DNA of 20,026 bases from a virus (lineage: Duplodnaviria; Heunggongvirae; Uroviricota; Caudoviricetes). Shown one piece after another: positions 2,567-20,026 of this stretch. Made by a program: the position numbers and the translations under genes. The notes below the pieces were generated by a model. The model was not told where the DNA came from and made no database searches. It was given only the letters and a program-made list of their open reading frames with translations. Every line of letters begins with the position of its first letter. Position 1 is the stretch's first letter. Location: the IMG/VR virus record IMGVR_UViG_2695420733_000001, one strand, 5' to 3'.

Positions 2567-2779
2567 TCAAAGCGCCACTACATGAACAGCGGCAGGACCT
2601 TTAGGTCCGTTCTCAATACCAAATTCAACTTCCTGATTCTCAGTTAATGTTTTGAAATCGTTGCTCTGAATTGCTGAGAAATGGACAAACACATCTTTGC
2701 TGCCATCTTTCGGCGTGATGAAACCAAAACCTTTTTCAGGGTTAAACCATTTCACTAAACCAGTCATTTTGTTAGACAT
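2567..2779 (-). CDS. cspI: Cold-shock protein CspI, 70 aa
   Basis: Translation [70 protein letters not shown]; canonical CspA-family RNP motifs KGFGFI and VFVHF. Confidence 0.9.
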
Positions 2780-3141: not shown

Positions 3142-4165
<1,024 letters not shown>

Positions 4166-4169
<4 letters not shown>

Positions 4170-4477: not shown

Positions 4478-4481
4478 TGGA

Positions 4482-4697
4482 TTACTCTCCTCTCGCAGCC
4501 TTACGCCTGTCTTCTTTAATCTTGAAATAAAGATTTGTCAGATACGTCAGCAGGCCAAAAACCAGGCTACCCAGCACACCGATTGCAGCCCACTGTGACG
4601 GAGTTACTTTATCGAGTAACTGCAATGCCCAGAAACCAGCATTACCCGCCGATGTGCCATAGGCAACACCTGTTGTTAACTTATCCATTGATTTCAT
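4482..4697 (-). CDS. essQ: Class II holin/pinholin with dual-start motif MKSM, 71 aa
   Basis: Met at 4697 with a GAGG SD; a second Met three codons later (M-K-S-M) is the classic holin/antiholin dual start. Two TM segments. The track's 96-aa version is an upstream open-frame extension. Confidence 0.8.
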
Positions 4698-4828
4698 ATC
4701 CTCACCCCGATGTACACGGATGGTGCAATATGTTTGAAAAGATCGGAGTCTACGGGGTAGTTTTGACAGCACACGTTGTTCTCAACGGCGCTAAAAAAAC
4801 ATACACATTAAAAATGTGGGTAATTATT

Positions 4829-4857
4829 TTGAAAGAAAGTCATATATAAAATAATAA
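4829..4857 (+). promoter_or_regulatory. Candidate sigma-70 promoter for ynfU (TTGAAA, 17-nt spacer, TAATAA)
   Basis: Hexamers read directly with 17-bp spacing about 60 nt upstream of the ynfU start. Confidence 0.35.
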
Positions 4858-4916
4858 TACGAGAAATGTTTTCATATTTAGTGTACTGTATACGGCCATT
4901 TATACAGGAAAAGCCT

Positions 4917-5087
4917 ATGTCAGAACGTAAAAACTCAAAATCACGCCGTAATTATCTCGTTAAATGTTCCTGCCCAAACTGCACCCAAGAGTCAGAACAC
5001 AGTTTTTCAAGAGTACAAAAAGGTACCCTTTTGATCTGCCCTCATTGCAACAAAGTATTCCAGACAAATCTTAAAGCTGTAGCCTGA
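4917..5087 (+). CDS. ynfU: Small zinc-ribbon protein with CxxC...CxxC, 56 aa
   Basis: MSERKNSKSRRNYLVKCSCPNCTQESEHSFSRVQKGTLLICPHCNKVFQTNLKAVA; two Cys pairs; length matches K-12 YnfU as recalled. The track's 73-aa ORF is an upstream extension. Confidence 0.65.
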   Translation: MSERKNSKSRRNYLVKCSCPNCTQESEHSFSRVQKGTLLICPHCNKVFQTNLKAVA

Positions 5088-5142
5088 TTGATTTTATTAG
5101 TAACAAGTATTTTTTATATTTTAATAATATATTTAAAGCAGA

Positions 5143-5168
5143 TAATAAAAAACCCGCCTGAGCGGGTT
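5143..5168 (-). terminator. Rho-independent terminator at the end of the cspB transcript (stem AACCCGC / GCGGGTT)
   Basis: 7-bp perfect stem, 4-nt loop, T-run on the minus strand immediately after. Confidence 0.7.
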
Positions 5169-5449
5169 GAGATTGTGGTGCTTTTTGTGGGAGTCATCCA
5201 CTTACGCACTTTGTTTTGCCATGCCAGCAGTTAGCTTCTGCTGTAAAACTATTCATGCAGCAAACCTGCACTTCACCACAATGGTTAGCATACTTTTCCT
5301 GATTAAGATTTTGCCAAATATGCTAGCCATTGTTTCATGTATTGGACCTCCTTACTTTTTATTAAAGAGATCCAATATTCACTACTCTGTCCGTATCTCT
5401 ACTCAGGCATCAGCCTTCTTCGTTATCGTATACAGACGAGCGATGAATT

Positions 5450-5665
5450 TTAATCAGTAATGATGACATTTGCTGCTGCAGGACCTTTAGCACCACTCTC
5501 TATAGAGAAGGTAACCTTTTGACCTTCAAATAAGGTTCGATAATTATCATTCTGAATCGCAGAAAAATGCACAAACACATCTTTACTACCATCAACAGGA
5601 GAAATAAAGCCGAAACCTTTATCAGCGTTAAACCATTTTACTAAACCAGTCATTTTATTTGACAT
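5450..5665 (-). CDS. cspB: Cold-shock protein CspB, 71 aa
   Basis: [71 protein letters not shown]. Confidence 0.9.
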
Positions 5666-5965
5666 TCTACATTCCTTAACTTGAGCCTTTCGGCATAAAT
5701 GGTTTGCATAACAGAAACGACTTCGTACTTAATTGGAGAGACTCAAAGAAGGAATAAGTGAATAACACCTGAAATGAGAACTGCTTTAGTAAACTACTTC
5801 GTATATCGTCTGTTCTTCAAACCGACGCAATCATTAACGCATAGTTGAACATATGAAGCAATGTTTATTTTAGACATCCAGCCATCTTCAACCCCATCAA
5901 AAAACTATAGCTTTCTTCAGGAACGTGTGTATAGTGCGCCAAGTTATCAGTATTAAGGAATTTTT

Positions 5966-6178
5966 TTGTCCCGTAAAATGACAGGAATTGTCAAAACCTT
6001 TGACGGCAAAAGCGGCAAGGGTCTTATCACCCCATCCGATGGTCGTATCGATGTCCAGCTTCATGTTTCAGCGCTCAATCTCCGCGATGCAGAAGAAATT
6101 ACCACCGGATTACGCGTGGAATTTTGCCGGATAAATGGTCTGCGTGGCCCTTCAGCTGCCAATGTTTACCTTTCATGA
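5966..6178 (+). CDS. cspF: Cold-shock protein family member CspF, 70 aa, apparent TTG start
   Basis: [70 protein letters not shown]; divergent from cspB. Confidence 0.85.
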
Positions 6179-6232
6179 GCTATATTAAAGCTTTAATTTC
6201 AGGCCCCATCGGATCACACATGGAGAGTTTTT

Positions 6233-6322
6233 ATGAATAACCCCGTCTGTCTTGATGACTGGTTGATTGGCTTTAAAAGCTTATGCTGTACTTTGGCCGT
6301 AATAGCTCTGCTAATAATATAA
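6233..6322 (+). CDS. Candidate 29-aa hydrophobic small protein ([29 protein letters not shown])
   Basis: ATG 7 nt after GGAGA; one predicted TM helix; between cspF and the late terminator. Speculative. Confidence 0.25.
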
Positions 6323-6467
6323 TAAGCAGACTCATTGTGTTTAGGGACATTGTACTGGAAGAAAACATTTTAAACATCAGGCAAATAACCAAGTCACCAG
6401 CTAAATAATAAGTTAACAGACATGAGTCCCGGGATGAGATTCAACATTACCATTGCCCCATTTAAAG

Positions 6468-6495
6468 CACAAAACCCGCTCATCAGCGGGTTTTC
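6468..6495. terminator. Bidirectional hairpin terminator: tR'-like terminator of the short late transcript (minus strand) and cspF terminator (plus strand)
   Basis: Stem CCCGCT / AGCGGG with loop CATC, flanked by an A-run upstream and a T-run downstream on the plus strand. Confidence 0.7.
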
Positions 6496-6539
6496 TACTT
6501 TTTCTTAACGTCGGGTATACAAAGTCCATCGTTGAAAAA

Positions 6540-6568
6540 ATTTTATCCATATTTTTTGAAAAATGCAA
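6540..6568 (-). promoter_or_regulatory. Late promoter pR' analogue (-35 TTGCAT, 17 bp, -10 TAAAAT) immediately downstream of Q; qut site expected here
   Basis: Near-consensus hexamers on the minus strand at 17-bp spacing, about 35 bp past the Q stop and about 50 nt before the terminator. Confidence 0.65.
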
Positions 6569-6599
6569 ACATCATGTCGCCATCTTCAGCAAAAATCAT

Positions 6600-7352
6600 T
6601 TATCTCGTCACCTTCCTCAATTGCGCTTCCGCGTATGCTTCTTCCTGCCAGCACTTTGTTACCAGTTTACCAATGACGTCCGCATACCCCTTATACCACT
6701 GATAATCGGTCAGGTCTGGTACCAGCTTCTGGACATGACGTCGTGCCAGCGTGGTCGGTAAACGACTAAACCGGTTTCCATTACAACGCCCACAAATCTT
6801 ATATACCGGTACGCCATGAAACCGGGTTCTTTTTTCATCCAGAACAATCCCTTTACCCTTACACCCTCTGCACGCTGTGCTGGCTTCGCCCTTACCATGG
6901 CAATGCTGACATAGTTCCTTCACCCATTCTTCCTTGATTACAGATTCCCCGCGTCTGTAGTGTTTCACCACTTCGCGCAATACATTATAAAATCCCGTAC
7001 CTGAACAATGCTCACAGCGAGCCTTACTTGCCGCAGACCTGGAGTAATCAGCAAAGGCAAAACTCACGAGGTAAGGAATAATCTGTAACCGGATTTCTTC
7101 ACTCAATTTGTTCAATGTCGGGTTATCCAGTGCCATCGCGTAATTTAGCAGGCCTTCAATCGCAAACTGAGGGTCCTGAACACCAACTTTTGCCAGAAAT
7201 AAGGCCAACCCAAGTGGTGCTTTCGACTGCACCATCCCCTGCGCTGCCATTACATCCGTAATTGTTAAACAACCGGTGCCTGTCGCTGGAGCGTCATCGC
7301 TCAATTTTGGAGATTTTGGGGAGTAATATTTTGGTAAGGCTTCAAGGTTCAT
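6600..7352 (-). CDS. quuQ: Late-gene antitermination protein Q, 250 aa from MNLEALPKY
   Basis: Four CxxC pairs (CEHCSGTG, CQHCHGKG, CRGCKGKG, CGRCNGNR); sits just upstream of the late promoter. The track's 260-aa ORF is a 10-codon upstream extension. Confidence 0.8.
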   Translation of the reverse strand: MNLEALPKYYSPKSPKLSDDAPATGTGCLTITDVMAAQGMVQSKAPLGLALFLAKVGVQDPQFAIEGLLNYAMALDNPTLNKLSEEIRLQIIPYLVSFAFADYSRSAASKARCEHCSGTGFYNVLREVVKHYRRGESVIKEEWVKELCQHCHGKGEASTACRGCKGKGIVLDEKRTRFHGVPVYKICGRCNGNRFSRLPTTLARRHVQKLVPDLTDYQWYKGYADVIGKLVTKCWQEEAYAEAQLRKVTR

Positions 7353-7365
7353 GCTCGTTCTCCAC

Positions 7366-8415
7366 TTACGCCAGTACGCCAATTGCCAGCGCGCGATCGA
7401 TAAAACGAAATATCAGCTCCAGTTGGGAGCCATACTTATCTTCAAATGCCACTGTATCCGTATGCAGCTCGTTGTGATGCTTTCTGCACAAAGGCAACAC
7501 AAAGAGATCATGTGCTTTTGTTCCCATTCCGCCCTGCCCGTGACCAATCAGATGATGCGGATCGTCGGCTGGCATACCGCAGCAAGCACACGGCTGTGTC
7601 TTAACCCAACGTGTGTATTTCTCCTTAACCCAGCGGCGACGTTTAGGCAGCTTCATGAAAGATTCCGGAGACTCTGGATCAACGGTGATGCTTACCACCG
7701 TCTTTTCCTGTGGTGATTTTTGTTGCTGGTGGGCGTAAGGCAACGGTGCAAGATTTTTTGTGCGTTGTTTCAATATGCTGGTGGCGGTCTGCTCTCCCGG
7801 TACGATGTCGCTTTCGCGGTACACCGAGCAGATTTTTTCCGCTGGTAATCCCAGCGAACGACGCGATACAGCCTCAGGTAGTGCATCCACCACCTGATTG
7901 CAGACCGCCCACCAGGATAATTCAGCCAAAGATAATTCCCGCTCCTGCGTACCGCTTATTGCGTGACGGATGACGTCAATCACCCATGCTGTCAGATTTT
8001 GTTGAGCAAGCAGCTCCAGTGATTCCGATGTCTGGTCACGCAGTTGGTTGTCGCAGTGCCAGCACAGCACCATTGCGCCGGTACCATAACGGTGAATGAC
8101 TGTTTCAGTGTGATGGTAATCGCCATTAGGCCACTGGCAGGATGTAACATGACGTAATAGCCAGTCGGACAATGCGCCAACGCCGCCAGCAGCACGAATC
8201 ACCCGTTCGTTACTAAAAAACGGCAGCAATGTTTTGTCTTCCGCCAGCGGCTGGCGAACGGCAGGAACGACTCCGGATGGCAGATTACGCATGCTTTTTG
8301 GTTCCGGTTCCACCAGCACTCGAGGATTATGAAATATCTGTATGGATTCACGGCCCGGCTTAAGGACCACCAGCCCAAGCTCAGGCACCAGAACAGGTCT
8401 AAGTAATACCCGCAC
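7366..8415 (-). CDS. ydfU: YdfU-like protein with a C-terminal Cys/His-rich HNH-like motif, 349 aa from the GTG at 8415 (the frame is open to 8454)
   Basis: C-terminus PCACCGMPADDPHHLIGHGQGGMGTKAHDLFVLPLCRKHHNELH; the GTG at 8415 gives 349 aa (K-12 YdfU length as recalled) and abuts the stop of the upstream ORF. Confidence 0.7.
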   Translation of the reverse strand: MRVLLRPVLVPELGLVVLKPGRESIQIFHNPRVLVEPEPKSMRNLPSGVVPAVRQPLAEDKTLLPFFSNERVIRAAGGVGALSDWLLRHVTSCQWPNGDYHHTETVIHRYGTGAMVLCWHCDNQLRDQTSESLELLAQQNLTAWVIDVIRHAISGTQERELSLAELSWWAVCNQVVDALPEAVSRRSLGLPAEKICSVYRESDIVPGEQTATSILKQRTKNLAPLPYAHQQQKSPQEKTVVSITVDPESPESFMKLPKRRRWVKEKYTRWVKTQPCACCGMPADDPHHLIGHGQGGMGTKAHDLFVLPLCRKHHNELHTDTVAFEDKYGSQLELIFRFIDRALAIGVLA

Positions 8416-8416
8416 G

Positions 8417-8695
8417 TTACCTCCAGATCCGTTGCTGGAAAGTGCGGGACGCACGTGGTGGGCGTTCGGAATAAGGCAGCCTGACAGAGATTATCCAGTG
8501 CCGATAGTCGAGACTGAGAGCTTTCTTAACCTCGAACCCGCGCCTGCGGTAAGAATGAATCAGCCATTCGGCCTGTTCTGCAGTGCATGGAGGGTGCTGG
8601 AACCATTCAGACTTGAATGCGTGAGAATACCGCCCGTGCGTGCAGGCAAGAACGGGCGAATTATCAGAATTGTAATATTTTGCGTTGCGTGCCAT
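8417..8695 (-). CDS. Hypothetical 92-aa Cys/His-containing protein, apparently translationally coupled to ydfU
   Basis: ATG at 8695 with GGAG 8 nt upstream; MARNAKYYNSDNSPVLACTHGRYSHAFKSEWFQHPPCTAEQAEWLIHSYRRRGFEVKK.... Not matched to a K-12 Qin gene from memory. Confidence 0.55.
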   Translation of the reverse strand: MARNAKYYNSDNSPVLACTHGRYSHAFKSEWFQHPPCTAEQAEWLIHSYRRRGFEVKKALSLDYRHWIISVRLPYSERPPRASRTFQQRIWR

Positions 8696-8761
8696 CGGTT
8701 TTCTCCGGTGGCACGGTGTTACTCAGCGGGAGTTCAGCCCCGCGCAAGATTGTAGATGAGT

Positions 8762-9013
8762 TTATTCTCCTGAAAAAGCAGAAAAGCCAGCTTTTATTCC
8801 GATCTCTTTCAATGCCTGTAATGAAGTGACAAACTCACCTTCGCGCAAGATAAATCCGTCCGTGACCCGAGCATCCACAAAATTAATTAACGCAGCCCCA
8901 TTCTTTCGCAAACACATAATGCGGTAATGACTAACAAGATTTCCATTTTCAACGCACACAGCATAGAGGCCATCTTCACAAAAAATTTTACGCAGTTCTT
9001 CGATGTTCATCAT
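8762..9013 (-). CDS. rem: Small prophage protein, 83 aa; assigned as rem by position (next to hokD) and length only
   Basis: ATG at 9013 with GGAAGG upstream; MMNIEELRKIFCEDGLYAVCVENGNLVSHYRIMCLRKNGAALINFVDARVTDGFILREGEFVTSLQALKEIGIKAGFSAFSGE. Confidence 0.5.
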   Translation of the reverse strand: MMNIEELRKIFCEDGLYAVCVENGNLVSHYRIMCLRKNGAALINFVDARVTDGFILREGEFVTSLQALKEIGIKAGFSAFSGE

Positions 9014-9129
9014 CAGAATCCTTCCGGATAATTAGCTCTCCCCTTTAAGGGACCATCCCTCTTATCCCTGCGCGCTACTTAAGTATTTTTGATTCTATTC
9101 CGGCACCGTCCAGAACTTCAAACGCGTTG

Positions 9130-9160
9130 AAAATAAAAACAAAAACCCGCCGAAGCGGGT
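9130..9160 (-). terminator. Rho-independent terminator of the relB-relE-hokD operon
   Basis: Stem ACCCGC / GCGGGT with loop CGAA; T-run follows on the minus strand. About 70 nt past the hokD stop. Confidence 0.65.
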
Positions 9161-9229
9161 TAAGTGCGGGTGCGTTGAGGATGCCTGCCACATCAGAGGT
9201 GGCGAGGGATTTCTCCCCCGCCGGGTCTC

Positions 9230-9385
9230 TTACTCCTCAGGTTCGTAAGCTGTGAAGACAGCGACCTCCGTCTGGCCGGTTCGGATTCGTACCTCGCAGA
9301 GGTCTTTCCTCGTTACCAGTGCCGTCACTATGACGGTTAAACAGATGACGATCAGGGCGATTAACATCGCCTTTTGCTGCTTCAT
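9230..9385 (-). CDS. hokD: Hok-family type I toxin HokD (RelF), 51 aa
   Basis: Hand translation MKQQKAMLIALIVICLTVIVTALVTRKDLCEVRIRTGQTEVAVFTAYEPEE; below the track cutoff. Confidence 0.85.
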   Translation of the reverse strand: MKQQKAMLIALIVICLTVIVTALVTRKDLCEVRIRTGQTEVAVFTAYEPEE

Positions 9386-9456
9386 AGCCTGCTTCTCCTG
9401 TCAACGCAAAGCAGAAGTGTCACCTTCGGTGCGAAACAGAGATGTCATGCTTTGGT

Positions 9457-9744
9457 TCAGAGAATGCGTTTGACCGCCTCGCTATATACTTCCGAGCGTT
9501 CTCTTTTCCCAACAGAAATCACGAAAACGACAACTTTCTCGTCTATAACCTGGTATACAAGGCGATAGCCTGAAGACCGGAGCTTAATCTTGTAACAATC
9601 AGGCATACCACGGAGCTTGTTTGCTTCAATCCGGGGTGACTCAAGTACTTCAACCAGCTTCTTTTTCAACTGTTCACGTACCGTCGAGCCCAGCTTTCGC
9701 CATTCCTTTAGTGCCCGCTCGTCAAAATCCAGAAAATACGCCAT
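9457..9744 (-). CDS. relE: Type II toxin RelE (ribosome-dependent mRNA interferase), 95 aa
   Basis: MAYFLDFDERALKEWRKLGSTVREQLKKKLVEVLESPRIEANKLRGMPDCYKIKLRSSGYRLVYQVIDEKVVVFVISVGKRERSEVYSEAVKRIL; start overlaps the relB stop. Confidence 0.9.
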   Translation of the reverse strand: MAYFLDFDERALKEWRKLGSTVREQLKKKLVEVLESPRIEANKLRGMPDCYKIKLRSSGYRLVYQVIDEKVVVFVISVGKRERSEVYSEAVKRIL

Positions 9745-9983
9745 CAGAGTTCATCCAGCGTCACACGTACTGGCTTAGGATTACGAAGCCGTTCTTTCAC
9801 TATCTCCACAAGTTCAGCATCTTCATCACTCAGGAGTGTCTGTTTGAACGGCAAGCGTTCATTGTCAGCGATATACTCGAGCATGAGACGAAGCGCTTCA
9901 GAAGGAGTTACACCCATTTTTTCAAGCGCGGCGTAAGAACGCGCTTTAAGTTCATCGTCAATACGCAGGTTAATGCTACCCAT
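9744..9983 (-). CDS. relB: Type II antitoxin RelB, 79 aa
   Basis: MGSINLRIDDELKARSYAALEKMGVTPSEALRLMLEYIADNERLPFKQTLLSDEDAELVEIVKERLRNPKPVRVTLDEL. Confidence 0.9.
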   Translation of the reverse strand: MGSINLRIDDELKARSYAALEKMGVTPSEALRLMLEYIADNERLPFKQTLLSDEDAELVEIVKERLRNPKPVRVTLDEL

Positions 9984-9993
9984 GTCTTACACC

Positions 9994-10022
9994 TCTTGTA
10001 ATTACAAATGTCATTACAAGTA
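9994..10022. promoter_or_regulatory. relO operator / relBE promoter region with TTGTAAT/ATTACAA repeats
   Basis: TTGTAATTACAA (perfect 12-bp palindrome) and TGTCATTACAAG read directly upstream of relB. Confidence 0.7.
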
Positions 10023-10313
10023 TCGCACTACAACATGCTTAGGGCAAGTCACGAAGGAAGTCAGAAAGTAGTCGTAAGAACGGTGATCACTGTCCGCTTT
10101 GTGCCAGGAGCAGCCATTGCTAAGTCCATCCTGTATTGTGCAGGTCAGCTCGTTTTTAAAGAGTCCGGCCATCATCTTACTGGTACAGACACCATATACT
10201 TTGTGACGGTCAGGCTACATATGCACAACTCAACTTATTCATCTATTTTTTGCTTTAGCATGTCAGTGTTGCTTTCTCGTCGGCGGGTGAGCGGTGACCT
10301 GACCTGTCGATAA
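10008..10313 (+). CDS. ydfV: Possible YdfV-like ORF, 101 aa; coding status doubtful
   Basis: ATG-initiated ORF whose length matches K-12 ydfV (101 aa) as recalled; overlaps the relBE operator and has odd composition. Confidence 0.3.
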   Translation: MSLQVSHYNMLRASHEGSQKVVVRTVITVRFVPGAAIAKSILYCAGQLVFKESGHHLTGTDTIYFVTVRLHMHNSTYSSIFCFSMSVLLSRRRVSGDLTCR

Positions 10314-10465
10314 AGGAACGTAACACGTTTTATGCAACACCCGCATGCGGCAGAAAATTATTGCCGAACGTTTACCCCTGTCAACAAGCTTTACTTTCTG
10401 AGGCGCGCCAGCCCGCGAGGAAAACAATCTGAACATCAAACAATTAATGACACAAGAAATACGAT

Positions 10466-10492
10466 TAAAGATTTTTTTGTGCATGCCGATAG
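10466..10492 (+). promoter_or_regulatory. Sigma-28 (FliA) class 3 flagellar promoter for flxA
   Basis: TAAA, 15-nt spacer, GCCGATAG; matches the sigma-28 consensus TAAA-N15-GCCGATAA. Confidence 0.75.
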
Positions 10493-10515
10493 TGCTTTTT
10501 TAAAAGGAGAAATCT

Positions 10516-10848
10516 ATGTCTGTCACAATTCAGGGAAATACCTCAACCGTTATTTCAAACAACTCCGCCCCGGAAGGAACATCAGAAATAGCCAAAATCA
10601 CAAGACAAATTCAGGTGCTGACTGAAAAGCTTGGGAAAATCTCATCGGAAGAGGGGATGACGACACAGCAGAAAAAAGAAATGGCTGCATTGGTACAGAA
10701 GCAAATTGAAAGCCTCTGGGCTCAACTGGAGCAGTTGTTAAGGCAGCAGGCAGAGAAAAAGAATGAAGACGCGACAGTTCAACCTGATAAAAAAGAAGAG
10801 AAAAAAGACGATACAAATACCGCTGGCACCATTGATATTTACGTCTAA
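10516..10848 (+). CDS. flxA: FliA-regulated protein FlxA, 110 aa
   Basis: Strong SD AAGGAG; MSVTIQGNTSTVISNNSAPEGTSEIAKITRQIQVLTEKLGK...; the sigma-28 promoter lies upstream. Confidence 0.85.
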   Translation: MSVTIQGNTSTVISNNSAPEGTSEIAKITRQIQVLTEKLGKISSEEGMTTQQKKEMAALVQKQIESLWAQLEQLLRQQAEKKNEDATVQPDKKEEKKDDTNTAGTIDIYV

Positions 10849-10862
10849 GTGACAGCCGTATT

Positions 10863-10886
10863 GTGGCCCTCATCGGGCCACTTTTC
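10863..10886 (+). terminator. Rho-independent terminator after flxA
   Basis: Stem GTGGCCC / GGGCCAC, loop TCATC, then TTTT. Confidence 0.7.
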
Positions 10887-10926
10887 GCCATCAGCCTTTT
10901 CTTTAAAGACATATTATCTTTGTATC

Positions 10927-10976
10927 ATTTCTGATAGTTAACATTACAAGAATTTCTGATAGTTAACATTACAAGA
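10927..10976. repeat. Perfect 25-bp tandem direct repeat (ATTTCTGATAGTTAACATTACAAGA x2)
   Basis: Two identical adjacent copies; each holds AGTTAACATTAC, whose reverse complement GTAATGTTAACT recurs at 12788-12799. Confidence 0.8.
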
Positions 10977-11309
10977 TATAAGTAATGGACGCACTCCCAA
11001 TTAGTCTATTTAAATCGCCACGAGTTTAACTGACAACCCATGATCAATTATGAATTGCAACTATTTCTGTAGTCACTTTTGTGGGGACAGTCCACAAAAC
11101 TGCCAACTTCCGCTTCTTGCTCTTAGCGGACATTAGCATAGGCTATTTACCATAACGCCTCATTACGCGCACCGCCCAGACTGACTCAGCGCGTTTCTGG
11201 CATATCCCCGGTAAAACAAGTAACAAACCACCCGAAAATGAACACCAGAAACGCGACTTAAGAATCTACCCTATGAATGGATATGCACTCAACCGAATCG
11301 ATCTTGGTT

Positions 11310-12623
11310 TCAATCTTTTTTATCGGGATCAGGCTTCTTTTTAGGTAACTTCGGGGGCTTAACTTGCTGATGACTTTGCGTTCGGCGCGTAAGCCAGGGA
11401 TGGTCAGCTTTAGGTTTAACATAGTATTTTGAGCGTAAATCAATACGGGCATTATCCACTCGTTCATGGACACTCTTTTCATCATCCAGTGGTATAGGCT
11501 CCGGGCCATCAACATACTTTTCCCAGCCCAGCGCTTTCCCGTCATACAGAACGTTAATTTCACCGTCAAAGTTCTCGCATACAGTAACAACCGAATGCCT
11601 AAGTCGATATCCCCGGCCCTCACTGCGTACCTGAAACGCACTGCTTTTGTACTGGAAAGTGAGATTTTTAGACAGAACGCGCTTCGCCTGTAGGCTGAAG
11701 ATATAACCCAGTTCCTCTTCAGAATGGTGCACATCAAGATGAGCATTATCAGTAGTACGAGGCGACGTAGCGAACCGGTTGTTATAGGCTTCAATAAAGG
11801 TCGGCAACCATGCATTTGCTGTTTCAATATCACTGATATTCTGAAGCCGCATTTCTTTGACCAGCCTGTCCTGTAGTGTCTGATTGGCGCGCTCTACCCG
11901 CCCTTTTGCCTGCGGGCTGTTGGCATGGATTGGCTCGATGCCCAGTGTCTTTATCGCACGAGTGAACTGGGTCAGCTCACCTTCCCGCTCTGGGTTATTT
12001 ACCCTGAATATACTGTGTCTATCAGAGTAGAGAGCGAGCGGTACGCCATGATCATTAAGGTAACCCCGGAGGGTTTCCATGTAAGCCCGGGTTGTTTCAG
12101 CAGGCACAAAACGCAACGCCATCAACGCACTGGTGGCATCATCAATGAAAACGATCAGTGTACATCTGGGGCCTCGATTTTCAAACCAGTCATGAGGTGA
12201 GCCATCAATCTGGATCAGTTCACCGTAAGATGGTCGTCGCATGCGGCGTTGATATATACGGGCAATTTTACGACGGCGTTCACGCCATAACCCCTCTTCT
12301 ATCATCCACTTTCTGAGAGTTTCAACGGATAAAGATAAACCGTGTATCTCGCGCAATTTTTCGCACGCAAACGTAGGTCCAAAATCAGCGTAACGGCCTT
12401 TGAGGAGTGAAATTACTGTTGCTCTGAATTCAGTAGAAAAGGAATTATTAGGACGCTTTCCACGTCGGTGGGAAACCAGACCAGAAGGCCCTTCATTTCT
12501 ATACCGTTGCACCAGACGTTTAACCTGCCGAATAGAAATGCCAATGCGTGCCGCAGCTTGTTCCTGAATAATCTGAAGTCGGTGGAGTTCCTTATGACTC
12601 ATCGTAACAGTCTCTTTGATCAT
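11310..12623 (-). CDS. DDE transposase with N-terminal HTH and integrase-core (rve-like) domain, 437 aa; IS481-like or ISNCY/IS1202-like
   Basis: N-terminal HTH-like MSHKELHRLQIIQEQAAARIGISIRQVKRLVQRY; DDE signature candidates LIQIDGS, VFIDDATS, KGRVERANQTLQDR. Family is judged from architecture, not a search. Confidence 0.75.
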   Translation of the reverse strand: MIKETVTMSHKELHRLQIIQEQAAARIGISIRQVKRLVQRYRNEGPSGLVSHRRGKRPNNSFSTEFRATVISLLKGRYADFGPTFACEKLREIHGLSLSVETLRKWMIEEGLWRERRRKIARIYQRRMRRPSYGELIQIDGSPHDWFENRGPRCTLIVFIDDATSALMALRFVPAETTRAYMETLRGYLNDHGVPLALYSDRHSIFRVNNPEREGELTQFTRAIKTLGIEPIHANSPQAKGRVERANQTLQDRLVKEMRLQNISDIETANAWLPTFIEAYNNRFATSPRTTDNAHLDVHHSEEELGYIFSLQAKRVLSKNLTFQYKSSAFQVRSEGRGYRLRHSVVTVCENFDGEINVLYDGKALGWEKYVDGPEPIPLDDEKSVHERVDNARIDLRSKYYVKPKADHPWLTRRTQSHQQVKPPKLPKKKPDPDKKD

Positions 12624-12957
12624 GAAAAATCCCCCAGAGAATTGTCTGGGGACATTTTAGAATGGTTCAAAGGGGACATTACAGCTTGGTGTTAACAATA
12701 GCCTGCTTCTCCGTGCCTTTCGGCACGTAAGAGGCTAACCTACATGTGTCTAGCATGAAATTGGCCTCAGATTAATGTTAAGCGTCTTGCAGGACGCGTA
12801 ATGTTAACTGGGGCTTTTCTCTATCTGCCGTTGGTGTCCATGCCCGAGGCAGATAGCCTCAAGCACCCGCAGTCATTCTACTTAACTAAGATTTCCCCGC
12901 AAACCGTTTTTGTCCAGCACAGTAAATATCCAACTAAACCAATGGAGTTCGCTGTAT

Positions 12958-13137
12958 TTACCGCCAGTATTCAATGCACATGACCGCCATGAACACCCCT
13001 AAAAAAAGGGCATTTATATATCCAAATATTAATATCAAAACATCAACTTTTTCCATATACCTTGCTGTGAAGATGATGGGCATACATGATGCGAACAACC
13101 AGAACGCAACAAACAAAAACTGCAATGCGTTTTTCAT
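12958..13137 (-). CDS. Small two-helix membrane protein, 59 aa (MKNALQFLFVAFWLFASCMPIIFTARYMEKVDVLILIFGYINALFLGVFMAVMCIEYWR)
   Basis: Consensus SD AGGAGG 5 nt before the ATG; two hydrophobic helices. The track's 72-aa ORF is an upstream extension. Confidence 0.5.
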   Translation of the reverse strand: MKNALQFLFVAFWLFASCMPIIFTARYMEKVDVLILIFGYINALFLGVFMAVMCIEYWR

Positions 13138-13379
13138 TATTCCTCCTACAATCAATGTGCAATTACATTTAAACACACCTCAATTTGGCCGGACATATAA
13201 ATATCTAAACCAGAAAAAATCACTTACATAGCGTTACAAACTCTTTAGTCTAAAGGTTCATCGTAAAACATTCCCCATACTTATCAGTCCGTTCCGCGCC
13301 AGGTAGCTCATTGCCTTATCTGGCAACCTGTAATCAGGTTTCCGCTTTTTCAGTTGGCTGGTCGTTTAACCGACATAGT

Positions 13380-14030
13380 TAATCCATTAATCTAGTTGCC
13401 GGATGTTGGTGGATTTTCGCGTTTTAGTTGTTCATAAAAGTGCACAGCTTTAACCAGTTCTTCTGATGTAACTGGGACTGGTGAGGCAGTGAATAAGGCC
13501 TGAATTTGATAGTTCGGCCTGTCGTTACAATCCTCTTTTTTCGGTACATATTTCCAGTCACCAGACCACTACTTCCCCTGAAAGTCCGTAACGCCTTTTT
13601 TCACGTAGCGATATCGCCATGCCACTGGTTTTGCTTGCCCCGCCGTTTCATGCCCTTCCTGATAATTAATCTCGCTCATTCATCGCCCCACTCATCACAA
13701 TATGCTTCGACCGGAGTTTTTCCCGCTTCATAGTCATCACGCTAGGATTCGACATCAGCAGCACTTCCACCGCGTAACTCACCATAGTCCATTAATAGTT
13801 CATCCCGCTCTTCAAAACTGATGTTATATTTGGCTGAACAAAAATCAGCCACTTTGTTCTTCCTCATCGTCTTTTATTTCGTGGTATGAGTAATTGCAGT
13901 AGTTAAAGAAAATTTCTTATGCTCCGTCATGAATTTCCTCAGGTGTTGCGTCATCGTCCACTTCGAATACATCCTCAAAATCTCCACCAGCTATTCCCGT
14001 TTCAATAATAATTTTGAACTTTCGCATTTC
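13380..14030 (-). pseudogene. Decayed coding region: a run of 23-41 codon minus-strand frames that look like frame-shifted pieces of former phage genes
   Basis: Adjacent short frames ending ...KHIVMSGAMNERD, MSEINYQEGHETAGQAKPVAWRYRYVKKGVTDFQGK, ...WSGDWKYVPKKEDCNDRPNYQIQALFTASPVPVTSEELVKAVHFYEQLKRENPPTSGN; no ORF of 60 aa or more on either strand. Confidence 0.35.
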
Positions 14031-14289
14031 ACTACCGCCCTTTCGGGCGGCCTCCTGATGTTCTGAGGGTGCAGAAATCCATCCGGTTAAGGATTAAATT
14101 TTATTTACAGAACTGAATTTAATTATTCAGATATACGTATCTGTAGCCTTACGAATCTACTCACTGGATGCCTCTTTCATAAAAATAATCCAGTGGGTTT
14201 TATCGTTTTTTCCCTGTTCGTTGACAGATAACAGGTTTTCTGTCTGTCAGTGCCAGAATCTGGCTTACCGGTATTTGCGTTTCATTCCA

Positions 14290-14646
14290 TTAAAAAATCA
14301 GAACGCCGTGCGGCCTCAACACCCGAAAGGCTTCTTTAAATCTCTGTCGCGAATCATCACGCCAGGCATCTTTATTCAGCCGTCCATATTTCTTTCCCAT
14401 CCAGGCGTTATCACCAACACTCTCAAGATGCGGAGGGTCTAATACAACCATCGAAAAAGATGCGTCTGCAAATGATAATGCACGAAAATCTGCGATAATG
14501 TCAGGGCTGATAATCAAGCGTCTCCCATTGCGTAATGTGTATCCTTCTTTTCTGATATCGCTGAATATCGCCCGTTCGTCAGACTTATCGAACCAGAACA
14601 TGCGGCTGCCACAGCACATATCAAGAATGGTTGCCGGTGCACTCAC
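14290..14646 (-). CDS. Short SAM-dependent methyltransferase-like ORF, 118 aa (DPPH motif), probably truncated by an in-frame stop
   Basis: Motif-I-like LDMCCGSR and motif-IV-like VVLDPPH; far shorter than normal DNA methyltransferases; frame continues 29 codons after the TAA. GTG start overlaps the upstream stop. Confidence 0.55.
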   Translation of the reverse strand: MSAPATILDMCCGSRMFWFDKSDERAIFSDIRKEGYTLRNGRRLIISPDIIADFRALSFADASFSMVVLDPPHLESVGDNAWMGKKYGRLNKDAWRDDSRQRFKEAFRVLRPHGVLIF

Positions 14647-15065
14647 TGCGCCACGTCCTGAAAATTACCCTGATAGAAAGCCAGTATGCGCTGCATAACT
14701 TCGCTCTTCCGGCACTCGCGACAGATTATGTTTAGGCGACTGTCGTAGCGACGTATTTCTCCGTCAGGTGATGACCAGATAAGGTCCGGATCAACCACAG
14801 CAGGTTTCTTCACCTTTGCCCTCGAGAGTTTTTTGCGGGCGTTTTGCCAGTCCTTACGCGCCTGTTCAGAGGGGAATAACCCGTAGCCGGAGTTGTATAC
14901 ATCGCCACTGGCTACCAGCTCTCTGGCAAGAACGCTCATCAGATATCTAGTCGCACCTGTTTTAGCTTCCAGTTGCCGTAACGTCTCACGGCCGCTCTGG
15001 CGCACGAGTTCCACCACCTGCCATTTAATTTTTTCCCGCTCTTCTTGTGTAAAAACTTTTGCCAC
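14643..15065 (-). CDS. Hypothetical protein of the replication module, 140 aa
   Basis: GTG start 5 nt after AGGGGG; between the replication initiator and the methyltransferase-like ORF in one operon. Confidence 0.6.
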   Translation of the reverse strand: MAKVFTQEEREKIKWQVVELVRQSGRETLRQLEAKTGATRYLMSVLARELVASGDVYNSGYGLFPSEQARKDWQNARKKLSRAKVKKPAVVDPDLIWSSPDGEIRRYDSRLNIICRECRKSEVMQRILAFYQGNFQDVAQ

Positions 15066-15105
15066 AAGTCCCCCTTAAAATTACCTCATGACCTGAAATC
15101 AACAC

Positions 15106-16071
15106 TTATCCTCTGAAACCAGGCGGAATTTCTGTATCCGGTTCAGAAATATGATTAACACAACGCTGTACAGGTGAACGTCCCAGGCGGATGACCAGTT
15201 CGTCCCATTTTTCGCGGAGCTTTGACGGGCTCATGATGTTTTTTACCCAGAATGGATCTCGCTGAACCCGACCAAACATTTCGCAAATTTGTCTGTGGCT
15301 TCTGCCATCCAGCATCCGCATTGTGCGCACGTCATTGGCCCAGGCAGTCCAGTTAGGCTCTTTTGGTCGCATGATCTCGCCATCATCACTGGCTGCCTGT
15401 TCGTAGAGACCCACGATCCGCCCCCAGATCCACTGCGCACACGCCAAATCCTCCCTGCTACCCCACTGGCGTTTTTTCGCACTAAACACAACCGCGTCGG
15501 AGTTCCGGGTTAAAAAATCCTGTTCAGTCGTCTGCGGGTCCGGTTGCGAAGCTTCCGGACGAAAAGTGTTTTTATTCTCTGTAGTAATCTCTGTTGTATT
15601 CTCTGTAAGATCATCAGGCCATTTTGACCCGATGACATTGGGTCGTTTTGAACCAATGGAGCGTTTCATTTTGACCTCTTCCATCGTGTCATTTTGACCT
15701 GATGGAGCGGCGCATTTTGAACCGATGGATTCGCTCAATTTGCCACCATCTAAAAGCTCGCTCCCATAGTTGATCGTGTAGAAATTGGTCATATCGCGCT
15801 TTGATTTATTGAGCTTTTCACAACGCAAAAGCCCCAGCGTTTTCAGACTTGCAAACGCGCGCTTTAACGTTGACTCTGACCAGAATGGGAACTGTTCCAG
15901 CCATTGTTCCGTTGTGTTATAAATCCAGCGAACACCATCACATTCCATGCCGGAGTTGGTATCTCTCAACCAGTAGTGCAGTTGTTGCAAAACAATGGCT
16001 TCGTTTAAGCCAATTTTCATTGCCAGCTGCGTGTTTATAACCAGTGGGCGTTCAGCAAAAAGAAGGCTCAT
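15106..16071 (-). CDS. Phage replication initiator (lambda O-like organiser) with the origin iterons inside its coding sequence; frame is open to 16125 (TTG)
   Basis: N-terminal winged-helix-like region (LNEAIVLQQLHYWLRD); central repeated peptides SIGSK/VIGSK encoded by DNA iterons; sits where lambda O sits. Start (16071, 16020 or 16125) uncertain. Confidence 0.7.
   Translation of the reverse strand: MSLLFAERPLVINTQLAMKIGLNEAIVLQQLHYWLRDTNSGMECDGVRWIYNTTEQWLEQFPFWSESTLKRAFASLKTLGLLRCEKLNKSKRDMTNFYTINYGSELLDGGKLSESIGSKCAAPSGQNDTMEEVKMKRSIGSKRPNVIGSKWPDDLTENTTEITTENKNTFRPEASQPDPQTTEQDFLTRNSDAVVFSAKKRQWGSREDLACAQWIWGRIVGLYEQAASDDGEIMRPKEPNWTAWANDVRTMRMLDGRSHRQICEMFGRVQRDPFWVKNIMSPSKLREKWDELVIRLGRSPVQRCVNHISEPDTEIPPGFRG
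15620..15750. repeat. Iteron array (about six 18-20 bp direct repeats, consensus CATTTTGAMCYGATGGAG) = putative prophage origin of replication
   Basis: Copies start near 15620, 15644, 15666, 15689, 15712 and 15736, spaced about 22-23 bp, all inside the initiator gene as in lambda ori. Confidence 0.65.
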
Positions 16072-16573
16072 AATTCCATCCAGCTTTTTGTTGGTATTGC
16101 TGTCGATACGCAAGTTTGAAAGCAATTGCTTTTTCTATAAGTTCGTCAGTTTCACGATCCACTACGGCAGGATCAGCAAAAAGCAGTCCGGACTCCACCA
16201 CATCGCCATATTCTTTGTTTAACCCGGCGATCATGCACGTGATGCTTTTTCCGTCAGTAATTTCACGATACAACCTGAAATCATTAATCCGGATAGCCTC
16301 CATAATTGCAGGCACTAGCGCCGTGAACTTTTCACGCTTATCCCTGGTGTCGATAGCCTTCCAGCGTTCAAATATCTTCACTCGATTAACGCCAAGCGCT
16401 CGCTGATCAATCGCGCCACCTTCATATGTGACACGCTGAACATCGATGTTCGGGCGCTCTTTCAAAGCCCAGAATGCTTCAGTGATTAATATCGTCGCCT
16501 GCTCCTGTGTCATTCCTGGTCGACATATCCAGGCATCCAGAGCCTCACGAGCCTGTTCAGGAGTGATTTTCAT
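16052..16573 (-). CDS. CII-position protein, 173 aa, possibly YdaT-family; K-12 ydfX may be a remnant of it
   Basis: ATG at 16573 overlapping the dicC 3' end; between the cro-like gene and the replication initiator. Family assignment is a guess from position. Confidence 0.55.
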   Translation of the reverse strand: MKITPEQAREALDAWICRPGMTQEQATILITEAFWALKERPNIDVQRVTYEGGAIDQRALGVNRVKIFERWKAIDTRDKREKFTALVPAIMEAIRINDFRLYREITDGKSITCMIAGLNKEYGDVVESGLLFADPAVVDRETDELIEKAIAFKLAYRQQYQQKAGWNYEPSFC

Positions 16574-16787
16574 TGTTCAACCGCCCCGCCCGCTTCGTCT
16601 TACGATATTCATCATAAACTTTGGGATCATACTGAAGCTCCCCGCCAGATGCCTCCTGTAGACGCATCGCGCGACCTTCGGGAACTAAATCCCCTTTCCA
16701 GCTATAAAGCGAAGCCAAACGAATACCTGCTGCTTGTGCAAGTTTTGTTTTTGAACCGAAATACAAAAGAGCGTCAGTTTTAAGCAT
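16557..16787 (-). CDS. dicC: Cro-like regulator DicC, 76 aa
   Basis: MLKTDALLYFGSKTKLAQAAGIRLASLYSWKGDLVPEGRAMRLQEASGGELQYDPKVYDEYRKTKRAGRLNNENHS; divergent from dicA. Confidence 0.85.
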   Translation of the reverse strand: MLKTDALLYFGSKTKLAQAAGIRLASLYSWKGDLVPEGRAMRLQEASGGELQYDPKVYDEYRKTKRAGRLNNENHS

Positions 16788-16801
16788 TTAAAACACCTTT
16801 A

Positions 16802-16821
16802 TTGTTAGTCATAACTAACAA
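16802..16821. promoter_or_regulatory. Operator palindrome in the dicA/dicC divergent control region
   Basis: TTGTTAGT-CATA-ACTAACAA, a 20-bp palindrome with perfect 8-bp arms, in the 83-bp gap between the divergent starts. Confidence 0.6.
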
Positions 16822-16870
16822 GATAGATGTTAACAAAAACATAGTCAATACGATTTAGCATTAGCTAACT

Positions 16871-17278
16871 ATGGAAACAAAAAATTTAACTATCGGCGAA
16901 CGCATCAGGTATCGTCGGAAAAACCTCAAACACACCCAAAGGTCTCTTGCTAAAGCCCTGAAAATCTCCCATGTGTCTGTATCACAATGGGAACGGGGTG
17001 ATAGTGAACCTACAGGGAAGAACCTTTTTGCCCTCAGCAAAGTATTGCAATGCTCACCAACATGGATTCTATTTGGCGATGAAGACAAGCAACCAACACC
17101 ACCTGTTGAGAAGCCAGTTGCCTTATCCCCCAAAGAACTAGAGCTCCTTGAGCTGTTTAATGCACTGCCAGAATCAGAACAGGATACCCAGCTCGCCGAA
17201 ATGCGAGCTCGAGTAAAAAACTTCAATAAACTCTTTGAAGAATTACTAAAAGCCCGTCAGCGGACAAATAAAAGATAA
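16871..17278 (+). CDS. dicA: HTH (XRE-family) repressor DicA, 135 aa
   Basis: METKNLTIGERIRYRRKNLKHTQRSLAKALKISHVSVSQWERGDSEPTGKNLFALSKVLQCSPTWILFGDEDKQ...; length matches DicA. Confidence 0.9.
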   Translation: METKNLTIGERIRYRRKNLKHTQRSLAKALKISHVSVSQWERGDSEPTGKNLFALSKVLQCSPTWILFGDEDKQPTPPVEKPVALSPKELELLELFNALPESEQDTQLAEMRARVKNFNKLFEELLKARQRTNKR

Positions 17279-17317
17279 CATCATCAATGAGTTATCTTTT
17301 ACCACATCAATTATGTT

Positions 17318-17364
17318 AGCTATAGCATACAAAATCACTTGACCGATATGTTAGTCATGGCTAA
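17318..17364. promoter_or_regulatory. Operator-like sites upstream of ydfA (candidate dicB-operon promoter/operator)
   Basis: TGTTAGCTATAGCATAC and TTAGTCATGGCTAA share the GTTAG half-site with the dicA/dicC palindrome. Confidence 0.4.
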
Positions 17365-17444
17365 TCTTGTTTGCATCAACACACCGCACGGTGTTCTCAG
17401 CAAACAGTTCCGCTACCCCAGCGTTAAGGGGAAATGAGGTCAGC

Positions 17445-17600
17445 ATGGATACTATCGATCTTGGCAACAACGAATCTCTGGTGTACGGCGTGTTTCCAAA
17501 CCAGGACGGCACGTTCACCGCAATGACGTATACCAAAAGCAAAACGTTTAAAACCGAAAATGGTGCCCGTCGCTGGCTGGAAAGAAACTCAGGTGAGTGA
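17445..17600 (+). CDS. ydfA: YdfA, 51 aa
   Basis: MDTIDLGNNESLVYGVFPNQDGTFTAMTYTKSKTFKTENGARRWLERNSGE; ATG with a GAGG SD. The track's 77-aa ORF is an upstream extension. Confidence 0.8.
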   Translation: MDTIDLGNNESLVYGVFPNQDGTFTAMTYTKSKTFKTENGARRWLERNSGE

Positions 17601-17601
17601 T

Positions 17602-17730
17602 ATGGATTTCGACACAATCATGGAAAAGGCTTACGAAGAATACTTCGAAGGCCTTGCCGAAGGCGAAGAAGCTCTCAGCTTCAGTGAGTTTAAACAGGCG
17701 CTTTCCAGTTCGGCAAAATCTAACGGCTGA
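17602..17730 (+). CDS. ydfB: YdfB, 42 aa
   Basis: Hand translation MDFDTIMEKAYEEYFEGLAEGEEALSFSEFKQALSSSAKSNG; start 2 nt after the ydfA stop. Confidence 0.75.
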   Translation: MDFDTIMEKAYEEYFEGLAEGEEALSFSEFKQALSSSAKSNG

Positions 17731-17759
17731 TAAGCGAAACAGCACCGCGAGGAATCAGT

Positions 17760-17978
17760 ATGCAGAAACGAGAACCCGTCATCATCGCGCCAGACTATAC
17801 CGATGATGAACTTTATGAGTGGATGCGCCAGAAAATTAATGCAGCGCAGGATCTGAAATGGGCTAATGAAGCCAGGGCTAAGCAGGCTGAAAATCTGTCC
17901 GCTCTGGAGCAGGATATCACCAATCTGGAAAAAGCAGCGGCATTAAGCATTGCCAGAATGATTACATACCCGCGTTAG
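17760..17978 (+). CDS. ydfC: YdfC, 72 aa
   Basis: MQKREPVIIAPDYTDDELYEWMRQKINAAQDLKWANEARAKQAENLSALEQDITNLEKAAALSIARMITYPR; GAGG SD. Confidence 0.8.
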   Translation: MQKREPVIIAPDYTDDELYEWMRQKINAAQDLKWANEARAKQAENLSALEQDITNLEKAAALSIARMITYPR

Positions 17979-18318
17979 TAGCTAATCAACAAAGCTAAGG
18001 TTAGTAATTAAGGAGTTCTCCACGGGTGAGGTGGAGTGCGTGCGCCGGACACGGGTGCGCATCCGGAACTGACAGTTTACTGAAAGGATATTTCCCTGAA
18101 AAGTCAGACCATAACGCGAAAGCGCACGGCGAGGTAGCTGGTTCATAGATAGCCTGTCGTTAAATTTTCGTCGACCGTGCGCTTCCGGTTGTGGCAACCC
18201 GCGAAATGGCGCGGCGGTAAGTATGGCGGGGTTATTCCTTCCCCGTTGAGGACACCGGGTTGTCAGGTTGACCATACGCTTAAGTGACAACCCCGCTGCA
18301 ACGCCCTCTGTTATCAAT

Positions 18319-18376
18319 TTTCTGGTGACGTTTGGCGGTATCAGTTTTACTCCGTGACTGCTCTGCCGCCCTTTTT
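18319..18376 (+). ncRNA. dicF: DicF small RNA (Hfq-dependent, represses ftsZ and other mRNAs)
   Basis: TTTCTGGTGACGTTTGGCGGTATCAGTTTTACTCCGTGACTGCTCTGCCGCCCTTTTT matches DicF as recalled, including its terminator hairpin and U-tail. Confidence 0.9.
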
Positions 18377-18545
18377 AAAGTGAATTTTGTGATGTGGTGA
18401 ATGCGGCTGAGCGCACGCGGAACAGTTAAAACCAAAAACAGTGTTATGGGTGGATTCTCTGTATCCGGCGTTAATTGTTAACTGGTTAACGTCACCTGGA
18501 GGCACCAGGCACTGCATCACAAAATTCATTGTTGAGGACGCGATA

Positions 18546-18734
18546 ATGAAAACGTTATTACCAAACGTTAATACGTCTGAAGGTTGTTTTGAAATTGGTG
18601 TCACTATCAGTAACCCAGTATTTACTGAAGATGCCATTAACAAGAGAAAACAAGAACGGGAGCTATTAAATAAAATATGCATTGTTTCAATGCTGGCTCG
18701 TTTACGTCTGATGCCAAAAGGATGTGCACAATGA
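18546..18734 (+). CDS. dicB: Cell-division inhibitor DicB, 62 aa
   Basis: MKTLLPNVNTSEGCFEIGVTISNPVFTEDAINKRKQERELLNKICIVSMLARLRLMPKGCAQ. The track's 97-aa ORF is an upstream extension. Confidence 0.9.
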   Translation: MKTLLPNVNTSEGCFEIGVTISNPVFTEDAINKRKQERELLNKICIVSMLARLRLMPKGCAQ

Positions 18735-18922
18735 ATTCAGCATTTGTGCTTGTTCTGACAGTTTTTCTTGTTTCCGGAGAGCCAGTTGATATTGCAGTCA
18801 GTGTTCACAGGACAATGCAGGAGTGTATGACTGCAGCAACCGAACAGAAAATTCCCGGTAACTGTTACCCGGTCGATAAAGTTATTCACCAGGATAATAT
18901 CGAAATCCCGGCAGGTCTTTAA
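18731..18922 (+). CDS. ydfD: YdfD (reported lysis protein), 63 aa, with N-terminal TM segment
   Basis: MNSAFVLVLTVFLVSGEPVDIAVSVHRTMQECMTAATEQKIPGNCYPVDKVIHQDNIEIPAGL; ATGA overlap with the dicB stop. Confidence 0.8.
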   Translation: MNSAFVLVLTVFLVSGEPVDIAVSVHRTMQECMTAATEQKIPGNCYPVDKVIHQDNIEIPAGL

Positions 18923-19014
18923 AACAGTTCCGTAATAAATATCCGGTTTCATTCTTATATGCCAGCAATGGCAGGGATTTGTTCATCCTTAAATCTGTCA
19001 TGAGGTTAAAACAA

Positions 19015-19602
19015 ATGAGTAAAGTCTTTATTTGCGCCGCTATTCCTGACGAACTGGCAACAAGGGAAGAAGGCGCTGTGGCTGTAGCCACAGCCATTGA
19101 AGCTGGCGACGAACGCCGTGCTCGAGCAAAATTTCACTGGCAATTCCTGGAACATTATCCGGCTGCTCAGGACTGCGCTTATAAATTTATTGTCTGCGAG
19201 GATAAACCTGGCATACCCCGCCCTGCCCTCGATTCATGGGATGCTGAATATATGCAGGAAAACCGCTGGGATGAGGAGTCTGCTTCTTTTGTCCCGGTTG
19301 AGACTGAATCCGATCCGATGAACGTCACTTTTGACAAGCTGGCCCCTGAAGTACAGAACGCTGTCATGGTTAAGTTCGACACATGTGAAAACATCACCGT
19401 TGATATGGTTATTAGCGCACAGGAATTGTTGCAGGAAGACATGGCAACATTCGACGGACATATCGTTGAAGCGTTGATGAAAATGCCAGAAGTTAACGCC
19501 ATGTATCCGGAGCTTAAGTTGCACGCCATTGGGTGGGTTAAGCATAAATGTATTCCTGGTGCTAAATGGNNNGNANNCTGGTTTACTCGACCTGTACCTT
19601 AA
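19015..19602 (+). CDS. ydfE: YdfE-like protein; 3' end uncertain because an 8-nt N-run (19570-19577) interrupts the frame
   Basis: ATG at 19015 with a GAGG SD ([20 protein letters not shown]...); the open frame begins at TTG 18979. Assigned by position after ydfD. Confidence 0.6.
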
Positions 19603-19715
19603 ACCAGGAAGAAAACGAAGCCGTTTGCCTGTGGCTGAAAGAGACTTACCCCGACGCAGTAGAGTTTTTACCACTTGGCGATCTCTTCCCTGGTGCAAAC
19701 AAAGCGCTGACCGAA
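19578..19715 (+). pseudogene. 46-codon fragment of a Sun-family RNA m5C methyltransferase (RsmF-like)
   Basis: [46 protein letters not shown] carries the VYSTC...EENE motif-VI signature and matches RsmF as recalled; flanking sequence is unrelated. Confidence 0.5.
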
Positions 19716-19792
19716 CCATCATGTAACCCTCTGTTTTCGTGCATTGAAACGGCGGTGATACAACTTTCGTGTATCACTTAGGACGCTAATCA

Positions 19793-20026
19793 ATGTCGCA
19801 TCTTATGCTTTCCCGTCACGGGATCTGGTACTACCGTAGGGTCTACCTGACACCTCGGAAACGCCGTGAAATTCGTATTTCTCTTCGCACACGTTCCAAA
19901 CGTGAAGCCTTGCTCCGTGTGGAGAAATATCTCACCTCACAACCTTTCCACTGCGTTCCGCAGTCCATCCCGGCACACACTGCAACTCCGTCTGGTCAGA
20001 AAACGGTAACAGCTTCTCCTGCTGGC
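19793..20026 (+). CDS. 5' part of a possible prophage integrase; runs off the window end
   Basis: ATG at 19793; 78 codons open to the window end (MSHLMLSRHGIWYYRRVYLTPRKRREIRISLRTRSKREALLRVEKYL...); sits at the int-proximal end of the lambdoid gene order. No catalytic domain visible. Confidence 0.35.
   Translation, partial: MSHLMLSRHGIWYYRRVYLTPRKRREIRISLRTRSKREALLRVEKYLTSQPFHCVPQSIPAHTATPSGQKTVTASPAG

Follow-up and report, generated by a model that had tools for sequence, protein, structure and literature searches.

Does a piece of a host methyltransferase gene beside an integrase gene mark the place where a prophage recombined with its host, or the place where an assembly program joined sequences that never lay together? 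This question is raised by the last few hundred nucleotides of a 20,026-nt stretch of Qin-like prophage DNA (henceforth the window, meaning the whole stretch analyzed here), in which a fragment resembling a Sun-family rRNA methyltransferase gene lies between ydfE and a putative integrase gene, next to a short run of ambiguous bases. An earlier note made from the letters of the window had interpreted the fragment as either a recombination or integration scar or an assembly join, and had proposed that in both cases it shows where ydfE really ends on its 3' side and how the prophage is built at its integrase end. An exact-protein look-up with the truncated exonuclease ORF (X residues retained) showed that the window is a complete contig, CCBZ01000344.1 of assembly GCA_000942815.1 (20026 nt), and additionally returned contig CDRR01000563.1 of assembly GCA_000940455.1 (9362 nt), which has the same structure. 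Taken on its sequence, the methyltransferase gene fragment very probably belongs to a chimeric tail that arose as an artefact at the end of a draft contig.

The E. coli gene rsmF (yebU) encodes the 16S rRNA m5C1407 methyltransferase, a member of the NOL1/NOP2/Sun family. Window positions 19578-19715 (138 nt, plus strand) represent an internal portion of this gene (nt 724-861, codons 242-287) at 100% identity to the copies of more than 2300 complete E. coli genomes, a match far above chance (E = 5e-65). The 138-nt segment is matched in 5425 of 5426 complete E. coli genomes, at an identity of at least 99% in 2358 of them; in strain E2865, it corresponds to nt 724-861 within a 1440-nt rsmF. A PDB sequence search likewise placed the translation, which ends in KALTE, at residues 242-287 of YebU/RsmF (PDB 2frx). 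The piece contains the Thr-Cys (TC cysteine) sequence that defines motif VI of RNA m5C methyltransferases (PMC2836557). The fragment of a Sun-family gene with motif VI that the earlier note had recognized is therefore borne out by the complete identity and the structural database match, as is its account of some 140 bp that start at the N-run and then diverge: the piece begins immediately after the ambiguous run and sequence similarity is lost sharply at 19715/19716. The interval assigned to it, 19566-19790, proved too wide, since 19716-19790 have no rsmF origin; when the alignment to rsmF and Qin-like prophages suggested in that note was run, rsmF matched over 19578-19715 only.

Identity to rsmF is confined to nt 724-861, possibly from nt 716, and the DNA on either side is unrelated. 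A full NOL1/NOP2/Sun m5C RNA methyltransferase gene is defined by a complete catalytic domain with the SAM-binding motif, the PC cysteine of motif IV and the TC cysteine of motif VI. Here, residues 242-287 alone are encoded, with the TC sequence present and the motifs upstream of residue 242 absent, and a Pfam scan of the 46-residue peptide reached no model because the peptide is too short. Compared with E. coli rsmF, the window thus shares codons 242-287 without a single difference, motif VI cysteine included, whereas it holds only 46 of the 479 codons, has no start and no motifs I-IV, and does not share the frame of the ORF upstream. The rsmF piece is therefore neither a gene nor a pseudogene at the rsmF locus.

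Table 1. Coordinates of features in the 20,026-nt window.
Position	Strand	Feature	Remarks
2540-2925	-	cspA-type thermoregulator leader	Rfam
5434-5826	-	cspA-type thermoregulator leader	Rfam
12697-12868	-	sok antitoxin RNA, hokD locus	Rfam
18320-18371	+	DicF sRNA	Rfam
19015-19569	+	Qin-type exonuclease gene, full-length homologue of K-12 ydfE, first 555 nt (185 codons)	100% to ATCC 8739 WP_000048362.1 (2478 nt)
19570-19577		conflict zone 'nnngnann', join of prophage contig and appended block	strict consensus of two natural continuations
19578-19715	+	internal rsmF fragment	100% to E. coli rsmF
19716-19994	+	integrase-island fragment, 279 nt: 77 nt of leader and first 67 integrase codons	99.3% to NZ_CP151161, 97.1% to NZ_CP180604
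19995-20026	-	fragment of IncF-plasmid leading-region 'class I SAM-dependent methyltransferase' gene, antisense	100% to about 3786 plasmids

Upstream of the ambiguous run, window positions 1-19569 align as a single piece to the Qin-like prophage of ATCC 8739 at 99.8% identity. The contig body differs from this reference at 36 mismatched positions (35 substitutions and an N at 1912) and one indel, and the homopolymer-indel error signature expected of 454 or Ion data was sought in the contig body and is absent. Of these 37 differences, 20 fall at the nohA end in window 179-745, a cluster more suggestive of a small recombined patch than of divergence distributed evenly. The lone N at 1912, an intergenic position near gnsB that is G in ATCC 8739, is the only non-ACGT character in the window besides the run at 19570-19577. 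The regulatory RNAs detected with Rfam (DicF, sok and the cspA-type leaders, Table 1) are expected content of a Qin prophage; the 20,026-nt window contains no tRNA genes.

In ATCC 8739, the 2478-nt exonuclease gene is followed by xis, a 1281-nt integrase gene and rspB. The window copy starts with an ATG and breaks off after codon 185 of 825, i.e., in the middle of the exonuclease gene and ~3.5 kb before the end of the prophage, and the contig lacks the remaining 1.9 kb of this gene as well as xis and the Qin-type integrase. The exonuclease segment is the final part of the genuine prophage contig. With the rsmF piece being out of frame with the exonuclease, the exonuclease ORF consequently meets a stop at 19600-19602. 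Both this truncated ORF ending at 19602 and the short ORF at 19566-19781 are artefacts that imply no biological function. The truncation also differs from that of the Qin ydfE pseudogene in K-12, with which the window shares the N-terminal exonuclease sequence and the upstream order dicA, ydfABC, DicF, dicB, ydfD. K-12 strains match the exonuclease to query position 719 (about nt 773), where IS2 takes over, whereas the window is cut at nt 555 and contains no IS, and a K-12-type pseudogene was rejected on these grounds.

Local BLAST against fetched references tiled the tail completely: 19500-19569 fell to the exonuclease gene, 19578-19715 to rsmF, 19716-19994 to an integrase island and 19995-20026 to a plasmid, with identities to the respective sources of 99.3-100%. 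The island tile corresponds to positions 4001-4279 of the fetched NZ_CP151161 locus (strain 20220828076), in which the island (positions 3983-8279) has its insertion point ~13 nt downstream of ffs, the gene for 4.5S RNA. It is carried by two of the 5426 complete E. coli genomes, NZ_CP151161 and NZ_CP180604, and lies beside ffs in both. The integrase ORF of the window starts at 19793 and is cut off by the plasmid tile. What had been taken for a putative integrase is a 67-codon fragment of the integrase from this unrelated, ffs-linked island and not the Qin integrase; the full-length island protein (362 aa in strain 20220828076) shares 22% identity with the Qin-type enzyme. Its N-terminus clusters with integrases of Salmonella, Klebsiella, Cronobacter and Enterobacter and gives a weak DUF6538 match under the Pfam cut-off. 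With an exonuclease that stops at codon 185 of 825, a missing Qin integrase and an unrelated integrase in its place, nothing supports the proposal that the rsmF fragment fixes the true 3' end of ydfE and the structure of the prophage at its integrase end.

The plasmid tile, which had not featured in the earlier reader's account, was revealed as a fourth component by searching plasmid records with the tail; among phage records, a search with the whole tail matched the exonuclease part alone. The tile reaches the end of the window contig and extends for 100 nt more in CDRR01000563.1, where it occupies 9231-9362 as a whole. These terminal 100 nt carry two differences that are absent from all 4018 plasmid copies (best match 98.5%), which, set against the 100% identity of the first 32 nt, suggests that the tail is poorly supported.

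The adjacency of a host-gene fragment to the start of an integrase gene is reminiscent of the attL and attR sites of prophages residing in host genes, and would be accounted for if a Qin-like prophage or an integrase island had inserted in rsmF and left a piece of the gene on its int-proximal side. At such a site, the host gene would continue outward into the chromosome, whereas both ends of the rsmF piece lie within the gene (nt 724-861 of 1440) and neither runs on. The Qin side is not an element terminus either: it breaks off at nt 555 of the exonuclease gene (2478 nt), and neither xis nor int follows. As to the island, similarity to island-free genomes is lost at position 3982 of the NZ_CP151161 locus and the window tile begins at 4001; the tile thus starts 18 nt inside the island, and 19715/19716 is therefore not at its recombination boundary and was rejected as an island att site. 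The island piece moreover stops after 67 integrase codons, and the native site of the island is beside ffs. In the complete genomes, rsmF is uninterrupted at nt 861/862 in all 5425 that have the gene, and the adjacency is found in 0 of 5426. Neither an outward host continuation, nor an element terminus, nor a recurrence in other lysogens was thus found for an att junction in rsmF, and we consider an integration or attachment scar extremely improbable. Of the two possibilities raised in the earlier note, the scar is contradicted by an rsmF piece that is internal at both ends, by the lack of an element terminus and by the two further unrelated pieces that follow, while the assembly join is upheld by the ambiguous run.

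The contig reads ...cctggtgctaaatgg followed by nnngnann and then ctggtttactcgacctgtacc... across this point. The natural continuation of the exonuclease gene after ...aaatgg is cccgaaat, and the sequence naturally preceding ctggttt... in rsmF is gtggtacg. These two octamers agree at position 4 (g) and position 6 (a) only, which are precisely the two called bases of the run. The sister contig CDRR01000563.1 has cnngnang instead, in which the first letter is that of the exonuclease gene and the eighth that of rsmF, again in keeping with an overlay. When octamers from the two reference loci were paired at random, the pattern arose at a frequency of 5.5e-4. Judged by its letters, the N-run is a consensus of two overlaid sequences, rather than unknown intervening sequence or a true junction. 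Two different sequences laid together at 19570-19577 therefore indicate a join made by the assembler, and ambiguous bases derived from two conflicting sequences, as in nnngnann and cnngnang, are what a mis-join leaves behind. An IS1 end within the run was rejected as an alternative source, as the IS1 termini ggtgatgc and ggtaatga misfit the called bases, which the exonuclease continuation fits. IS1 does occur at this spot elsewhere: in E. coli T16R (fetched locus 5230-6010), it adjoins an exonuclease remnant whose start corresponds to window 19570-19572, within 2 nt of the point where the window exonuclease stops. The position may be an IS1 hot spot or hold an IS-related cause of the contig break, and the genuine contig may have ended here because the strain has a repeat or an IS at this point.

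At the remaining junctions, 19715/19716 and 19994/19995, the partners meet bluntly, with no shared bases and no microhomology, and in local BLAST of the tail every junction lacked IS sequence, target duplication and microhomology. IS insertion was accordingly rejected as an origin of the tile boundaries, also given that rsmF nt 861 is never interrupted in complete genomes. The four native breakpoints contain no restriction-site or common motifs, which argues for random shearing. No two tiles are adjacent in any of the 5426 complete E. coli genomes. A 30-mer spanning 19715/19716 is absent from viral, genome and metagenome contigs, a 30-mer spanning 19994/19995 is absent from genome and metagenome contigs, and an 81-aa ORF that crosses the island-plasmid junction is present in one contig only in a collection of ~15 billion proteins. 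The flanks of the joins thus map to unlinked loci of finished genomes, while the junctions themselves are confined to the assemblies of one strain, as is characteristic of a mis-join.

The mosaic forms the terminal 457 nt of CCBZ01000344.1, and the appended block is also terminal in the sister assembly, where it measures 557 nt (8+138+279+132). Excepting N calls, CDRR01000563.1 equals window 10765-20026 at 100% over 9262 nt, and all five differences from ATCC 8739 in the shared stretch are common to both contigs. Since the contigs share every one of these differences, they derive from one strain and do not confirm each other independently. Position 1 of the sister contig, window 10765, lies in unique sequence in the flxA region, and the contig bears the number 563; its assembly is highly fragmented and probably of low coverage.

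The occurrence of the junctions in two deposited assemblies is in favor of a real rearrangement. In that case, the Qin exonuclease gene would have suffered a break, and its repair through illegitimate end-joining or IS-mediated events would have captured short stretches of rsmF, of the ffs island and of an IncF plasmid. Such an event would also be in line with the absence of ambiguous bases at 19715/19716 and 19994/19995 and with the IS1 of T16R, which marks a genuine breakpoint at the equivalent position in another genome. The N-run would then reflect only a consensus confused by reads of the normal rsmF copy and of exonuclease paralogues. A true junction would, however, be a single clean sequence, whereas the 8-nt zone holds the natural continuations of both flanks. 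Both assemblies moreover represent the same strain, the junctions are found in no other genome or collection searched, IS sequence, target duplication and microhomology are missing from all junctions, and the block is terminal on its contig and as long as a single library insert. E. coli is known to lack canonical NHEJ, and the capture of several fragments would therefore be exceptional. Together, these observations render a real rearrangement improbable. One form of it, in which the mosaic is real chromosomal DNA that arose when a double-strand break in the exonuclease gene was sealed by end-joining with three fragments captured in tandem, from rsmF, the ffs island and the IncF plasmid, is more improbable still; we know of hardly any documentation of such 'filler DNA' capture in enterobacteria.

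We therefore favor an assembly artefact. A genuine Qin-like prophage contig of 19.57 kb would end inside the exonuclease gene, and a block of about 557 nt would have been attached to that end, composed of three bluntly joined pieces from unlinked replicons: chromosomal rsmF, the ffs-linked island and the IncF plasmid. At the attachment point, the two sequences were overlaid over 8 positions, with the consensus caller writing N where they disagreed and a base where they agreed. The sequence comparisons show the tiles and where each comes from, the character of the N-run, the terminal position on the contig and the lack of these junctions elsewhere; the block itself most likely stems from a chimeric library molecule, or from one or a few low-coverage reads, in which three sheared fragments had been ligated to about one insert length. 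Two points speak against an artefact. The clean, N-free state of 19715/19716 and 19994/19995 implies that some reads must span these junctions, and the same junctions are present in two deposits; should these be based on independent read sets, a random chimeric molecule could not account for them.

Alternatively, the block might have been built when a scaffolder butted tiny low-coverage contigs together. Three such contigs (about 146, 279 and at least 132 nt), e.g., from low-level cross-sample contamination, would have been set end to end with zero-length gaps by the scaffolder or by concatenation. The tiles are of the size of a read or read pair, the ffs island is rare (2/5426) and may be foreign to the strain, and the sister assembly is highly fragmented, as seen from its contig number and its break in unique sequence. 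This variant of the artefact would, on the other hand, be expected to leave N spacers at 19715/19716 and 19994/19995, where there are none, and rsmF reads of a contaminant, if they matched the host allele exactly, should have been absorbed into the rsmF contig of the host. It also sits poorly with the identical order and orientation of the pieces in both assemblies, and we regard it as unlikely, if less so than a rearrangement in the chromosome. The artefact as a whole resembles mis-joined ends of draft contigs in its blunt joins of unlinked loci, its position at a contig terminus, its N calls at a sequence conflict and its restriction to the assemblies of one strain.

The mosaic tail is almost certainly not a real genomic feature and is uninformative about the prophage. 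The last 457 nt of the window thus offer no basis for annotating ydfE, the integrase end of the prophage, rsmF as an integration site or any of the small ORFs located there, and both deposited contigs, CCBZ01000344.1 and CDRR01000563.1, bear the chimeric tail. Asking whether an N-run is the consensus of both natural flanking continuations, which quickly brought this tail to light, provides a simple check that can be reused for other windows. If, in spite of its low probability, the mosaic were real chromosomal DNA, it would represent a rare case in E. coli of multi-fragment DNA capture at a break.
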